Shown here one piece after another: positions 2,262 to 54,171 of a DNA stretch of 64,000 bases. The notes beneath the pieces are model-generated. The model was not told where the DNA came from, ran no database searches, and worked only from the letters and a program-made list of their open reading frames with translations. This DNA is from Pecten maximus. Lineage: Eukaryota. The position numbers were made by a program, and so were the translations under genes. Numbering within the stretch: position 1 is the stretch's first letter; each line of letters opens with the position of its first letter. The DNA is taken from assembly GCF_902652985.1 (NCBI RefSeq), contig NC_047025.1:22692001-22756000 (forward strand), in the 5' to 3' direction.

Positions 2262-2668
2262 ATTGACCCACCTGTACGATGTTCCCGTTTTAAACTCTAT
2301 GTTTTAAGCACTTGATAATCCCAGCCTTAATTATCCCACTTCCCCGATCTTGACCTGTCTATACACTGTCCCCGTGCATAACTCCATATACCATTATTAA
2401 TTGGCCCATCTGTACGGTTATCTTGTTTATCTTCCTACCTAGAAGATTAACTTAACCTACCTAGAAGATGAACTTGACCTACTTATAAGATGGCCTTGAC
2501 CTACCGGTTGAAGGTTAACGTGTCGAGCTCTTCTTTATTTTTACTTGACACATGTATGATACGATCTTGTCACACATGTACGATGTCCAAATAAAGTGTC
2601 ATCCGTTGTAATCGCTTGACCCACCTAAGAGATGACCCGGACCTACTTATACTATGACCTTTACCTAC
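2262..2668. repeat. decayed tandem repeats derived from the exon-4 3' end and donor
   Basis: 2269-2298 cacctgtacgatgttcccgttttaaactct vs the junction tacctgtacgatgtccccgtatcgaactct. Further partial copies and about 23-bp ttgacctacctagaagatg units. Confidence 0.65.
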
Positions 2669-2755
2669 CTGTACGATGTCCCCGTATCGAACTCTCTTGC
2701 CCATCTGACGTTTCTGTTCTGCAGCGTTATCCGCATTCTCGGCATCTGCTGCAAA
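2669..2755 (-). CDS. ITPR: ITPR-like gene, coding exon 4 (87 nt); gene continues left beyond the window
   Basis: cttttatgacag|TTT... ...GTACAG|gtaggt, phase 0/0. Encodes FAADAENADNAAEQKRQMGKRVRYGDIVQ, similar to ITPR1 [30 protein letters not shown]. Confidence 0.92.
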
Positions 2756-3262: not shown

Positions 3263-3387
3263 CTTGGCCTGGGCCAACAGTCCCTTGTCCTCCGTCAGGT
3301 CTGTTGTTGACGCCGCTTGGTTCACCCATTTCCGGTACTTTTTGTTTAATTTGTATCGGTTTTGGATTCCAATTTCGAAGACGACAG
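3263..3387 (-). CDS. ITPR: ITPR-like gene, coding exon 3 (125 nt)
   Basis: ttgattccag|CT... ...GCCAAG|gtgggt. Encodes VVFEIGIQNRYKLNKKYRKWVNQAASTTDLTEDKGLLAQAK, similar to ITPR1 [36 protein letters not shown]. Lies within track ORF 3200..3397(-). Confidence 0.9.
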
Positions 3388-3687
3388 CTGGAATCAATTT
3401 AACCTTATATCACAAACTCTTGTGTAATTAAAATATGAACATACCTATGAAAGTGCATGCATATACAATGGTTATTTACATCTTAAACGATTTGTATTTA
3501 TACTTTTATTGGTTGTGATTTAAAGGTAAAGTGTCCGATGTATGGGTCACTCAACAGGTAACCCAATCCAGCCCTTACGTTTTATCAGTAAAAAATGTGA
3601 AATATTATGACTAGTATAGAATTCCTGATTTCGTGTGAATCTAATCTATCAGAGTAGGAGAAGGAAAGGTTTTGTTCCTCATTTAAT

Positions 3688-4070
3688 ATAGACGTACCTT
3701 GTGGGTTAGGGACGTACCTTGGTGGTTAGGGACTTTGGTGGTTTTTGTTCCTCAATGAATATGTAGACTTACCTTTGGGGTTATGGACTTTGGAGTTTTT
3801 TTCTCATTAAATATATAGACGTACCTTGGGGTGAGAAATTTCATAGACGTACCTTGGGATGAGGGATATTATAGACGTACCTTGGGGTGAGAGATTTTAT
3901 ATACGTACCTTGGGGGTTGGGGATTTTATAGACGTACCTTGGGGCAAGAGATTTTATAGACGTACCTTGGGGGTTGGGGATTTTATAGACGTACCTTGGG
4001 GGTTAGGGAATTTATAGACGTACCTTGGGGGTTAGGGAATTAATAGACGTACCTTGGGGGTTAGGAATTT
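3688..4070. repeat. 28-29 bp minisatellite made of the exon-2 3' end plus donor site
   Basis: Unit tatagacgtaccttgggggttagggaatt. Twelve gacgtaccttg-type cores from 3691 to 4046; the last is the real donor. Confidence 0.92.
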
Positions 4071-4126
4071 TGGACGGCTTTTCTCGGTCCTGGTTGTGGT
4101 CTATGTATAACCCACTGTGGACGGAG
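4053..4126 (-). CDS. ITPR: ITPR-like gene, coding exon 2 (74 nt)
   Basis: gtcctttcag|C... ...CAAG|gtacgt. Phase 2 in and phase 1 out, compatible with both neighbours. Encodes SVHSGLYIDHNQDREKPSKIPNPQ(A), the position of ITPR1 LVDDRCVVQPE.GDLNNPPKKFRD. Confidence 0.85.
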
Positions 4127-7100
4127 CTGAAAGGACATCAATGATCTCAATACAGTTTAGTGATGACACATACATCTTATGTAATCAAGACAGACAAATA
4201 CGAGCAATGTAACAATATTTCACCCGTAAAGGGCATTCCAGGTACGACATCAGCCATTGCATCTCTAGACTCCGCTGTGATGTGACATGTCACAGCATTA
4301 ATGCAGATAGCTAAGCAGCAATGGTAACAAACTAGATGACGATTCAGCAACAGAACTCAAAATACAATATCCTTGATGCGGAAGGTGACATCGTCGAATC
4401 ACATATTCGAAAAAGATAACTCGAAACCTAGGAAAGTATTACACGCCATCAAATGCGACCGGAGCAATTCAAAAGACGGGACATTCCTGGTTCTGGTTAT
4501 TGCCTTTATGTAACCTAAGAGGAACCGGATTTGGAGGTAGGAAGCTGGAATAACACATACTTTCACAAAACATTGTGATGCTTCTATAGAAAGTGATGAA
4601 CCTGGGGCACGATTTACATAGCGACACGTCAATATATAGAAGGACGATATGCAATACTTCTTAGTTATTTTTTTTAAAATTGTTTTTGTGAATCTGTACT
4701 TGATGTTTGAATGAATGAAATGTTTACGATCAGGTAGACAATGCTGGTTTGGTTCGGTGAACGATAAAGAGAGCGGGATAAGTTGACTTCGTTTTGTCCT
4801 AAAGTCGCCTGAAACATATAACGTGACGGTACTTATATAGTATAATTTATGATCTATATCGATAAATAACAAACGCGCCATTCCTCTTTTCTCTCTTCCT
4901 CCTACTTTCCCATCGGCCACTTTTTTTTCCTGCTCCGATATTAAAAGTCGTTTTTCCCTCCGCTGCTTTTTTTTGGTTATTTTTCTCTGTCCCAATTTTC
5001 TTCCTCAAAGTGATAATGTAGACCGCGATATGTCCGTCCATGTGTAAACAGATTGGTGTTCAGTTCATTTGAGAAGTCATTGTTTTCAGAACCCACATAA
5101 ATACCCCTAATGAACATTGACGGTACAATTTCCCCGGGGATCACAGTTCGTGTGACGGGACTCCATCAAACTGGGTTTATTGTATAGGGAACACTTCTTA
5201 CGTAAGGAAGGGTCGGTCAATATATAGGCAAAATAATGCTATCATCATTCACAAGCTCAGCAACTCATAAACAGTCATATATTTCTCTAAATATTTAACA
5301 ATTATAGATGTCTTTGTTTTCCCACATGAGGCGCTCGTACGTTATATGCAATAAGATGATTCGATCGTAACCCTGCAAATGAAATTAGATAAACAGTCCC
5401 TTAATGATATTCCGGAGCCATATGTTACAGTCTACGCCCCGGGCAAATAACATATACCTGTTCCTAAAATGTGCAAAGTTCATGATGACCAGGTAGTTTT
5501 TAATACATGTATTTATTAAATACATAACCATTGTTTTCACGAATCTTTTCTGTGTTACTATTATCGTGTGTTTGTTGGCCTACGGTACCGAAGCTTCCAG
5601 ACGATAATACCTTTGTACTCTCGCTTGGTTCTGTGAAAATGAGATAGGTTATTATTTCAGTGTTAAAAACCGGAGACATTGATTTCACGATATTCGGAGG
5701 TACCGCAGATCCAGAGACATCGTTCTGTGAAATGTGTATTCACTCAATCATGGAAAAATAAGGAACAGTCACTCAAAGACAGGGTTTTCGGTTAGTGTTT
5801 TGCTAAAGGGAATATACCCAGATACATTAAGTAATCAAAAAAATAGGAGGAAACAAATACTATCATTGATTGAACTCTCATCTAAAGACGAATACAATAC
5901 TATACCAGCTCACATCCTTGTAACAAAGGACTCTTTCAAATTATACCATGTATTATTTTGATGTTGTATTTATTTATTTTTATATTTTGTTTCCTTATTT
6001 CAAAGTTCTGTTTGATGATCGGTGACGTTATATGCCTCCCCCCTCCCCCCTCCTCCCCCTCCGTGTTTATATGCTGTTTTCAGAAAATCGAGCTTTTCCC
6101 CATGGGCCACACGAGACACCGTCCGCCATTGATGTAAGTCCTCCGCGACACCTGTCGGTAATTGATGACATATTTACATAAGGTAATCGCAAAGCGTCTA
6201 CATTCATGCATCAAATCCATTCGTAGGTGATCTCCAAAACGACATTTTCGATTGAAATTGTCTCGAGAAAATGGCAAACGTACCGTACTGATACTGACGA
6301 TGCCTTGTAATGTTATATTTACATATATACCTCGATACGTCTACTAGCCGGCCTGTCTGGCCACTCTTGTCAGGGATAAACCTTGTTATACAGGACCAAG
6401 TTTAGACCTTCGGACGTATTGGCAACCAAAATGCAGCTCTACCCGAGGTCAACTTTATATTGTTTCATCTGACAACATTAACAGGGATGACAAATACAAA
6501 CAACTCCGGTCAGTATATTAAAAGTGAAAGTTTCCAGATGATATAATATTATCACTCTACGTTTTCACAAATTCTTCACTTACTGACAGAGCCCTACCTC
6601 CTATATGCCGCTAGGTTTAACGAAATGGCAATATCGAAGGTCATATGGAATACAGATTTCAAGGAGAACTAAAAGATGAAAATAAATTACTGAAGGAAGA
6701 GCAAAAAGGAACAAATGAGGATCGAAACATGTATTGCCAAGGTTGCGACAGATATATGACACAATGAATAAAAGACACAGATGAACACCCCAATTATCGG
6801 CCCACATGATTAACATGATAACAACAGGCCCGGTCCTTTGGTTCATCAAAGTTCTCTTAAAGAGATGTTGTCAGAGGAACATGTCTATCCTACTGATTGC
6901 CCGCTTCTACACGCATTGCTGATTGTATTAGATATTAACAGTATCTCACCAAGATTAGAAGATGTCGCTGGTATTTGAACATTAATTTCCTGCGCCAAAA
7001 AGAAAGTTTCGTAGCGTGATTTTATATGAGTTTACGTGAACCCCCAGTTACATGCTTTTTATATTGACAGATTAGCTACTGTGTGTGGAGGGTTCATTGT

Positions 7101-7360: not shown

Positions 7361-7467
7361 CTTGACTGAACGCTGTAAACATATCCCTCCGTCTCCACCG
7401 AGTACAGCGCGACGTAGTCCCCCACATTGAGGTACTCGCCCGCAGCCGTGTTGCTCAACATCATCAT
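7361..7467 (-). CDS. ITPR: ITPR-like (IP3 receptor family) gene, first coding exon (exon spans 7492-7361 including 25 nt of 5' UTR)
   Basis: Acceptor tttctttacag at 7494-7493 and donor AAG|gtcagt at 7360. Translates MMMLSNTAAGEYLNVGDYVALYSVETEGYVYSVQS(S), matching the ITPR1 N-terminus [26 protein letters not shown]. An in-frame TGA upstream fixes the start. Ends in phase 2. Confidence 0.9.
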
Positions 7468-8986
7468 GACGTCACGGCTGCCTACACGTCATCTGTAAAG
7501 AAAACAATATTGAGCACGTGGTTTATTATTCATGATTTTTAACAAATGGTTGTTAGGTATATTAATCGTGTGATTACAAGATAGAAATATGTCGTATGAT
7601 TATTGAATTAGAAATATTAATCGGGGAGTTAGGTCGCATGATGTTAATGGTGAGATTACGAATACGAAATCTCACATTCGTATCATATCTCATCACTTAA
7701 ATCGTAATAATTGTAACACAAGGGATTCTGGGTTCTGGATTAATTTGATAGAAATTTACAACGTCAACAGGGAAACGTTTTAAACAAGTTTTCCTCACGT
7801 ACTTCAGCGATCTGGTACGTATTGTTCTAACTTGTGTGAAGGCTGACCAGACAGAAATTAAAAAAAAAATGGGACTCATTAGGTTTGAAAGCTGACAAAA
7901 AGATAAAAAGTACATGTATTCCTTCTTTAGCTTGACCGTATTGTTCTAGCTGGTGTGAAGACTGACCAGTACTCTTCTTGTTAGTACACAGGCTGACCAC
8001 GCGGGTCAGTATAAATCATACCAACGTGTTATGTCCACATTGTCTATTTAGGAATTAATTTTTTTCTCCTTCTCTGTTCACATGATTTATTGAAAAGAAA
8101 CGCCAGCAGGCAAAGTTTACTTGAAACACGCCGAAATCAATAGATTGAGCAAGAAAATGATAAATCTTGTGGAAGCGGCCGTGTTGCATTTGACAGACAG
8201 ACTTCACTATCTATTAACCCTGTGTACTCATTTTGTGGTTGGCCAAATCTATAACCCCTGTTTGGACTACCCCATAACAAGGCCTACTTCAAATGGCCGT
8301 CTGCGTTGTCCTGACCCCAAAACAAATCATGGGTCTACTTCAGACGGATGGCTGTGTCGTCCTAAGTAGTAGAAATAGTGATTTTTTTCACTGAGATATA
8401 CCTTTTAAAAGTATGATTGTACAAATATAGGTTACATGATAAAAGAGACTTCCAAACTCAGATCCGTACACTTCGAGTCCAAAGTAACGTCAGAGTGAGA
8501 AGCTAGATCTCAATTCCGTAGTATATGGGAGATCGATCGATCGAGGCTCACTTAGACACGTATCAAACATAGATCATAGGAAAATGAGGTGACAGTTACA
8601 CCCCCGAACAACTAAACAGTGATCCTACGGCATGAATACAAACGAAAACTGATTTACAACATCACCAAAATAAACGAGGAAGCTCAGACCAACACCAGCA
8701 TCTTATTCTATAGCAGGAAATGTGCCAAAAATATACTTGTCACGTAAGTTTGCAAAAGTTTGCAATGATATTGTGTATTATATCGGCACTCTTGGATACC
8801 ATTTTGTGTCCGGTATGTACCTGATAGTCTAGACCTTTTGGTAGGAGGAAGGAAAACAAAACACCCAAAACTTCAAACACCCACCTAAGAACTTTCTACC
8901 ATTATTATGGAATGCGAGATATGCGTTTGGTCCCAAACAATACAAACGAATATTGAAAGGGCGTAACAGATGTGCGATGTTCCTGA

Positions 8987-51400: not shown

Positions 51401-53070
51401 TGGACTGATGGTTATTGTAACAAAGTAGCTCACTACTTTACCTGGACTGATGGTTATTGTAATAATGTAACTCACTACTATACCTGGACTGATGGTTATT
51501 GTATTAATGTAACTCACTACTATACCTGGACTGATGGTTATTGTATTAATGTAACTCACTACTATACCTGGACTGATGGTTATTGTATTAATGTAACTCA
51601 CTACTCTACCTGGACTGATGGTTATTGTTACAAAGTAGCTCACTACTTTACATGGATTGATGGTTATTGTAATAATGTAACTCACTACTCTACCTGGACT
51701 GATCGTTATTGTAATAATGTAACTCACCACAATATACCTGGACTGATAGTTATTGTAATAATGTAACTCACTACTTTACATGGATTGATGGTTAATGTAA
51801 CAATGTAACTCACTACTCTACCTGGACTGATCGTTATTGTAATAATGTAACTCACTTCTCTACCTGGACTGATGGTTATTGTAACAAAGTAGCTCACTAC
51901 TTTACCTGGACTGATGGTTATTGTAACAAAGTAGCTCACTACTTTACCTGGACTGATGGTTATTGTAATAATGTAACTCACTACTATACCTGGACTGATG
52001 GTTATTGTATTAATGTAACTCACTACTATACCTGGACTGATGGTTATTGTATTAATGTAACTCACTACTATACCTGGACTGATGGTTATTGTATTAATGT
52101 AACTCACTACTCTACCTGGACTGATGGTTATTGTTACAAAGTAGCTCACTACTTTACATGGATTGATGGTTATTGTAATAATGTAACTCACTACTCTACC
52201 TGGATTGATGGTTATTGTAATAATGTAACTCACTTCCCTACCTGGACTGATGGTTATTGTAATAATGTAACTCACTACTCTACCTGGACTGATGGTTATT
52301 GTAATAATGTAACTCACTACTCTACCTGGACTGATGGTTATTGTAATAATGTAACTCACTACTCTACCTGGACTGATGGTTATTGTAATAATGTAACTCA
52401 CAACTATACCTTGACTGATAGTTATTGTTATAATGTACCTCACTACACTACCTGGACTGATGGTTATTTATAATAATGTAAGTCACTACTTTACCTGGAC
52501 TGATGGTTATTTATAATAATGTAACTCACTACTCTACCTGGACTATTCGTCATTGTAATAATGTAACTCACTACAATATACCTGGACTGGTCGTTATACC
52601 TGGACTGATGGTTATTGTAACAATGTAACTCACTACTCTACCTGGACTGATGGTTATTGTAATAATGTAACTCACTACTATACCTGGACTGATCGTTATT
52701 TATAATAATGTAAGTCACTACTCTACCTGGACTGATGGTTATTTATAATAATGTAACTCACTACTCTACCTGGACTGATCGTTATTGTAATAATGTAACT
52801 CACTACTATACCTGGACTGATCGTTATTTATAATAATGTAAGTCACTACTCTACCTGGACTGATGGTTATTTATAATAATGTAACTCACTACTCTACCTG
52901 GACTATTCGTCATTGTAATAATGTAACTCACTACAATATACCTGGACTGGTCGTTATACCTTGGCTGATGGTTATTGTAACAATGTAACTCACTACTCTA
53001 CCTGGACTGGTGGTTATTGTAATAATGTAAGTCACTACTTTACCTCGAAGGCTCGCCATTGTAATGATGC
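48410..53070. repeat. 42-bp minisatellite, about 110 copies, with 632-bp and 2134-bp higher-order repeats
   Basis: Unit tacctggactgatggttattgtaataatgtaactcactactc. Identical track ORFs at 48958..49596 and 51092..51730; offset 48958 to 49590 is 632. Confidence 0.98.
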
Positions 53071-54171
53071 AACTGTCAGATCTAGTTACTATGACTGGAC
53101 AGATTAAGTTTCTATATTCTTTGTACGAACATTTTACTGGCGTCCCTGACCACCTTTAAGCTTGTAAGTATGACGCCAGTAATGATCCGGTCGTAGAGGG
53201 CGTATGATGGCACAACACAAGCACCGCCACAGACCTGAGCATTTTAAAGTCTGTGTGTCACATTTTGAGACATTTTGGATATCAATAATAAACATCGAAG
53301 GGTGCCGTTTTACCAAATTTCCTAAAATAGATATGAACTGTAACACATTCTCATGTCCCTGTGGCACCGCCATGTAGCCTCATGAGGACATGTATTATGT
53401 ATACACTGCCGATAAACAGTGTCGTAACTCATCATTCTATAGATACCATTATATGGCCGAGGCGAGAGAGACACGAACCTTTTAGTATGTATGTCATCAA
53501 GGGTGAAGGAGAAACGGAGCAATACAACCGAAGTGTGTTATATAGGTATAATTCAACAATGTTATTAACAAGTCTACAGAGGATAAGATCTATTTGATGC
53601 AGCCCCACAAGTGTAGTAGACCAACTGGGGCCTATGGGCGTAGGTGGAGGTGCGTATCATGATGGTTTTTTGTGTGTCAAATAACGAAATATTCACATAG
53701 AAGACCCAAGGGATAGTAGGAAATGTTATGATCGCAATATGGAAGCAATAAAATCAACCATATATATATGATCTACCAACATTTTATATATAGATATATT
53801 CTATTCATGCTAAATATGTCGATATCTGACCTAAAACGCTTACAGTAGGTCACATGGGATTGCGATTCAAATTATGATAATTAGGCTAAGTGCTGTTAAT
53901 GAACACACGTAATGTCTTGGCCTGCGTCCACGTGCGCGTTTGTTCGTGTCCCGCTGGATCACACACGACGTCACGGTGAATATCCGGTGATGAATATGCC
54001 AGTACGGGTCTATTGTATGTGAATTCCAAACATTGTTCGACATATAGATGTACTATATGTACAATGGCCCGACGCTCGTCACACTTCGTTTTCTTAAAAT
54101 TGCATTTTGATCACTGGCTGTCGCGCCTGTCCCCAGAAGGCATGGCACCATTCCCAACCCACGGTCCCTTT

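Follow-up and report, generated by a model that had tools for sequence, protein, structure and literature searches.

Tandem duplications that carry an exon-intron boundary into the adjoining intron have been described in amphioxus, where they are called mirages. They occur in Adh3, troponin C, the globins BflGb6 and BflGb9, and PGBD5, and the portions of the reports drawn on here describe them as unstable in length and as leaving regular splicing apparently undisturbed (PMC3087553, PMC3902484). Human genes contain comparable repeats. In the 37-bp VNTR of F7 intron 7, the first site meets no competition from its identical pseudo-sites (PMC1557585). The introduction of the same report lists junction minisatellites with repeated donors in IFI6 (6-16), CBS intron 13, LMNB2, and PDGF, and mentions that the nearest pseudo-sites of IFI6 and CBS are also used (PMC1557585). 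Splicing can also be tuned by intronic repeats that act in other ways. According to the excerpts consulted, the length of TERT VNTR6-1 tunes splicing or nonsense-mediated decay (NMD) via G-quadruplexes (PMC11830802), and an intronic VNTR in ABCA7 tunes splicing (PMC13196383). The portion of PMC10078293 consulted contains nothing on repeated donors. No description of such arrays from a bivalve or scallop was found in the literature searched, which did not include subscription papers.

An array of this kind lies in a 64,000-nt stretch of the scallop Pecten maximus genome (contig NC_047025.1, positions 22,692,001 to 22,756,000; hereafter the window), at the border of coding exon 2 and intron 2 of a predicted calcium channel gene. 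The array is a mirage, or junction-spanning minisatellite, of the type already known from amphioxus and human genes: its first unit spans the real exon-intron boundary, the unit is local and not dispersed, and the copies keep their splice signals. As in amphioxus, copies of the boundary extend into the intron, one genome contains both donor and acceptor types, and several arrays occur in one gene (PMC3087553, PMC3902484). The unit length also falls in the 10-72 bp range reported in the consulted text for amphioxus Adh3. Unlike the amphioxus cases, the scallop array resides in a mollusc gene of the IP3-receptor family and has two nested unit lengths; moreover, length instability is a feature of the amphioxus arrays, whereas the scallop array is known from one assembly. 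The likeness to F7 is that the first unit spans the donor, later copies repeat the 5' splice site, and only the most upstream site has been seen in use. However, the F7 unit, as described in the excerpt, includes 4 nt of exon, is polymorphic at 5-9 copies, and has been tested in minigenes, whereas the scallop unit includes 18 nt of exon, the array has 12 sites, and it is known from sequence and contigs (PMC1557585). The layout of repeated donors is the same as in IFI6, CBS, LMNB2, and PDGF, but the pseudo-site use cited for IFI6 and CBS was not seen here at low depth. TERT and ABCA7 offer a precedent for length-tuned splicing; TERT acts through G-quadruplexes and not through repeated donors, and effects of alleles have been measured there.

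Structure and origin of the array

The host gene is located on the minus strand. Matches to MIR (E=2e-5), RYDR_ITPR (E=3e-6), and Ion_trans (E=1e-4) follow one another in that order downstream on the same strand, the single-exon scores of MIR and Ion_trans being under Pfam's cut-off. Among the open reading frames scanned, RYDR_ITPR was found in 2 of 145, MIR in 1 of 145, and Ion_trans in 1 of 43. None of the four N-terminal exons, which are short, matched a Pfam family, a genome search with PF08709 did not recover the gene, and single-exon searches for homologs found none. Homologs were found instead with an alignment-based profile. Built from exon-3 relatives, the profile found 22 proteins, mostly molluscan or annelid, many of which are annotated as IP3 receptor type 1 or 2(-like). 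Spliced alignment to 12 homologs yielded 57 exons and 2,119 residues over ~60 kb with no stop, in a model that is partial at the C-terminus and uncertain at a few late borders. The domains and homologs thus identify the predicted product as a channel of the IP3 receptor/ryanodine receptor family, and its family membership suggests that it would conduct Ca2+ when gated by IP3. An acceptor at 7493 implies that a putative untranslated exon precedes coding exon 1. Downstream of the gene are a Myb/SANT-like ORF (L008:7138-7521), which we take to belong possibly to a Harbinger-type element, and a sulfotransferase ORF (L009:5044-5862).

Between 4053 and 3698 on the minus strand there are twelve AAG/GT sites (the slash marks the splice site), which are the real donor and 11 copies (Table 1). 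AAG/GT is intact in all 11 copies, 10 of which read CAAG/GTACGT; the remaining one, at 3773, reads AAAG/GTAAGT. None of the 11 scores below the real donor with an approximate donor matrix that, like the other splice-site matrices used, was not trained on the P. maximus genome. The TRF program reported a period of 29 with 9.0 copies and a score of 355, and weaker periods of 55 and 20 deeper in intron 2. Tiling and alignment showed that the repeat unit consists of ~18 nt from the end of exon 2 and 11 nt from the start of intron 2. In the first eight copies, 10-16 of the last 18 exon bases agree with the real junction in an ungapped comparison, as do 9-10 of the first 10 intron bases. The last three copies are spaced 52, 55, and 20 nt apart, and pairwise alignment revealed ~33 nt of exon-like sequence in those at 3773 and 3718. 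An earlier note, made from the letters of the window alone, had described a minisatellite born from an exon-intron junction of a Ca2+ channel gene, with 11 decoy donors past the real one, most of them CAAG/GTACGT on the sense strand. Each of these points is borne out, as is the composition of the unit; the 28-29 bp spacing that it gave holds only among the first eight copies.

Table 1. Coordinates of the junction array and of neighboring features of the host gene in the window
Feature	Position	Strand	Basis
Coding exon 1, ATG at 7467	7361..7467	minus	sequence, tblastn with homologs, spliced model; outside RNA-like contigs
Coding exon 2, 74 nt; its final 18 nt form the exonic part of the unit	4053..4126	minus	RNA-like contigs covering 4053-4127; homologs
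Real 5' splice site AAG/GTACGT	4047..4055	minus	sequence; sole donor in RNA-like contigs
28-29 bp array, probably younger: real junction and 8 copies (4024, 3995, 3966, 3938, 3909, 3881, 3853, 3825)	3814..4071	minus	TRF, unit tiling
TAA in frame with any of decoys 2-11	4012..4014	minus	reading-frame analysis
More decayed copies, probably older: two 52-55 bp units (donors 3773, 3718) and one 20 bp unit (donor 3698)	3688..3813	minus	TRF, pairwise alignments
AATAAA, single, in intron 2 downstream of the array	3505..3510	minus	sequence
Coding exon 3; holds out-of-frame TAA 3346-3348	3263..3387	minus	RNA-like contigs
Coding exon 4	2669..2755	minus	contig joint 3263-2755; spliced model
Decayed exon-4 donor copies in intron 4, junction-equivalents ~2483, 2461, 2272	2262..2505	minus	3 matches, 3-4 mismatches in 20

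A 17-mer of the unit has seven exact matches in the 918-Mb genome, all of them within the array, and therefore the array is not a product of chance. A DNA search with the array as query likewise matched this locus alone. The peptide encoded by the end of exon 2 has recognizable counterparts in gastropod, bivalve, and annelid homologs (tblastn), so the exon end is old coding sequence that predates the array. Because the unit is unique to the locus and the exon end is conserved in homologs, the array arose in place from the exon-2 junction. In other words, intron 2 contains 11 additional copies of its junction with exon 2 that likely came from local tandem duplication. The reverse order, in which a dispersed satellite or a piece of a mobile element supplied both the exon end and the donor, might be entertained in a genome as repeat-rich as that of P. 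maximus. It is highly improbable, as neither the unit's confinement to this locus nor the conservation of the exon-end peptide fits it, and it was rejected. Local duplication may have proceeded in two steps. The first would have been a duplication of 52-55 bp, made up of ~33 nt of exon and ~20 nt of intron; next, a shorter 29-bp derivative beside the real donor would have expanded via slippage or unequal exchange. We infer this order, with the long unit before the 29-bp unit, from divergence and exon content.

Donor use at the array

Evidence on splicing comes from RNA-like contigs. Runs X6 and X7 each contain one 250-nt contig, at a depth of 4.4, that joins 4053 to 3387 and 3263 to 2755; the figures do not differ between the two runs, which probably represent a single data set, their RNA status was guessed from the small share that fits exons, and they are contigs and not reads. 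These contigs confirm 4053 as the authentic donor. Neither a joint from a decoy nor coverage of the array was present in the X6 and X7 contigs at depth 4.4. Run X8 matched intronic pieces only and run X9 had zero coverage. Contigs drop rare forms and NMD would remove decoy products, so minor use of the decoys could be hidden. X6 and X7 also contain a 193-nt RNA-like contig in intron 1 (window 6374-6566) whose ends lack splice sites. Masking of the decoys by RNA structure was considered and rejected: the array RNA folds less stably than its shuffled versions (z=+1.64) and has no stable fold.

What would happen if a decoy were used? With decoy 1, the reading frame shifts and a TAA at 3348 in exon 3 ends translation at codon 84. 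With any of decoys 2-11, an in-frame TAA at 4014, within the array, ends it at codon 74. It is tempting to read uniform stops as a sign of design. However, in 25 further introns of the gene, the same 11 offsets lead to a stop in 267 of 275 cases, and 19 of these 25 introns have stops at all 11. The stops therefore say nothing on design, and that idea was rejected. The precedents of F7 and amphioxus suggest that the most upstream donor would be chosen. By the same precedents, any transcript that leaked to a decoy would stop prematurely at codon 74 or 84 of >2,100 and would be removed by NMD. Both of the stop positions had been foreseen in the earlier note, which also proposed counting split reads to see whether 4053 alone is used. 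With contigs standing in for split reads, the 4053-3387 joint is the sole one to acceptor 3387, at a low depth that could conceal minor use.

A variant of this scheme retains the neutral origin but allows a leak, in which splicing reaches the closest one or two decoys at a low rate, their products are degraded, and the number of copies slightly lowers the channel mRNA. Over 10+10 nt, decoys 1 and 2 are identical to the real site, all 11 decoys lead to premature stops, IFI6 and CBS provide the example of pseudo-site use cited in the introduction of PMC1557585, and the excerpts on TERT VNTR6-1 (PMC11830802) and ABCA7 (PMC13196383) show that intronic VNTRs can tune splicing or NMD, if by other means. 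On the other hand, a decoy joint is absent from the low-depth contigs, premature stops are the default outcome for such offsets, and the identical pseudo-sites of F7 do not compete in the excerpted account (PMC1557585). Moreover, if the nearest copies alone leak, distal additions would tune nothing. We regard such a leak as unlikely.

Related arrays in the gene and the genome

Tandem repeats are present in 17 of the 56 modeled introns of the host gene and cover 16.7% of the intron bases. Four of the 28 arrays span a junction, namely the donors of exons 2, 42, and 48 and the acceptor of exon 5. Random placement of founding units on the collapsed gene predicts 1.9 junction-spanning arrays (P=0.12), and the rate in the gene is thus compatible with random birth. 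Of the 56 donors, 5 have a near copy of their 10+10-nt junction within 1.5 kb, and none of the 56 acceptors does (2 do in a 16+4 window), against a background of 9.0% among 2,352 random intronic positions.

The other arrays of the gene, all on the minus strand, differ in form. The exon-5 acceptor array in intron 4 (L002:8600-9074) is a 39-bp unit repeated 12.2 times whose last unit spans the acceptor; this mirage is of the acceptor type and has as many as 11 decoys, of which 6 keep AG. The exon-42 donor array (L005:1-170 and L006:9840-10000) is a 21-bp unit repeated ~15 times across the donor, and seven of its intronic sites score at least 5.8, some exceeding the real donor. At exon 48, decayed repeats of 49-61 bp extend across the donor (L006:2886-3021), where the model probably sets the border 14 nt too far downstream. 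In intron 7 (L003; window-relative -14967 to -15313), the donor region of exon 7 recurs in two decayed copies at +56 and +177.

Genome-wide, 26.6% of an evenly spaced sample of eighty 10-kb stretches (799,400 bases) is tandem repeat, and the same 0.8-Mb sample contains 162 arrays with a period of 15-80. Strong donors occur in the units of 4 of these arrays vs 3.8 expected at a score of 5.0, and in 2 vs 2.0 at 5.8, in a sample of such low power that a 2-4-fold donor bias would fit. Motif counts gave a different picture. Triple runs of this array's donor 9-mer have 539 matches vs 2 for the reversed motif, and the first 100 of the 539 fall into 12 arrays with unrelated units, hence at least 12 arrays. 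Triples of the consensus donor 9-mer number 4,302 vs 153 reversed (28-fold), single copies 22,640 vs 6,606 (3.4-fold), and triples of a near-miss motif 533 vs 37, although motif matches are not arrays and just three control motifs were counted. The first 100 consensus triple matches represent 10 arrays in 13.3 Mb, a density that would correspond to roughly 400-700 arrays in the genome. At the start of four of these first 10 arrays, the sequence has a good acceptor and an open frame, compared with 10% of 400 controls. One of the four, a clear mirage in another gene, is a 43-bp x 19 donor array (L060:2788-3735); the exon in which it starts matches Cupin_8/JmjC (E=5.5e-13). The motif counts suggest a strong bias of arrays toward donors, but none was found at the array level in the unbiased, low-power sample of 162. 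In either case, junction-spanning or donor arrays are numerous in the P. maximus genome.

Several other long arrays carry donor-like motifs. A 5.4-kb array (L067:3564-8992) has a 21-bp unit in which the donor motif mostly lacks GT, a few copies being intact, and is possibly a decayed donor array. Two arrays in the window, at 44089-47309 (28 bp x 115) and 48410-53074 (42 bp x 100), have units that contain donor-like AG/GT motifs on the minus strand; inspection by eye and with Pfam revealed no exon at their 5' ends.

By-product or regulatory element

The reading that we favor, and consider quite probable, is that the array is a run of junction copies that is likely tolerated since splicing keeps to the first donor. 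It would then be a neutral by-product that needs no regulatory role. A harmless by-product is likely because the contigs show the first donor only, repeats are common in this genome, and such arrays are known from lancelets and humans. The earlier note had proposed a tunable sink for splicing and NMD or a cluster of U1 decoys; with the first donor alone in the contigs, stops as the default outcome, and junction arrays common, that proposal found no support. Several observations speak against the neutral reading nonetheless. These are the thin RNA data, the ability of NMD to hide decoy use, a donor 9-mer that is invariant in 9 of 9 units, the 28-fold vs 3.4-fold donor excess, and the use of pseudo-sites in IFI6 and CBS.

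In the nine adjacent units, the 9-mer that would pair with U1 does not vary, CpG included, whereas 11 of the 20 other columns do (hypergeometric P=0.005). Of all 9-base windows in 23 local arrays, the focal array included, 2.9% are invariant. With P about 0.005-0.03, this is the one signal for function, and it is treated as a lead. U1 binding protects pre-mRNA from premature cleavage. One explanation for the invariance is that selection keeps the decoys as U1 snRNP sites that are unused as donors, where they would either shield a very long pre-mRNA against premature cleavage or help to define exon 2. The sole change among the 11 copies goes toward the consensus, and one AATAAA lies downstream of the array in intron 2. 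However, the block that does not vary measures 12 nt, and changes are concentrated in a slippage-prone C/T run. Core invariance is also absent from the exon-42 donor array, where AG/GT is lost in 6 of 14 copies, and from the exon-5 acceptor array, where the AG/CT core is lost in 5 of 11. In 10 other donor arrays, which were selected for three exact copies, the 9-mer is only mildly less variable than the rest (0.28 vs 0.38 alleles per column), and AATAAA is common in AT-rich introns. Retention as U1 sites is thus very unlikely.

A broader proposal combines two claims. It holds that 5' splice sites are favored birthplaces of minisatellites, of which hundreds of donor arrays would be the outcome, and that the U1 core has been selectively kept here, with copy number dialing channel output through U1 loading or through decoy splicing and NMD. 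We consider this combination distinctly improbable. The neutral by-product remains our preferred reading, and in that case the single locus matters little, being one more mirage. However, a gene with three donor arrays and one acceptor array, in a genome with hundreds of donor-motif arrays, provides a natural test set in which the rule that the first donor wins could be examined outside mammals and lancelets. If the decoys do tune the channel mRNA, a fast-mutating repeat would act as a dosage control on calcium signaling, and many similar arrays would become candidate modifiers of splicing.
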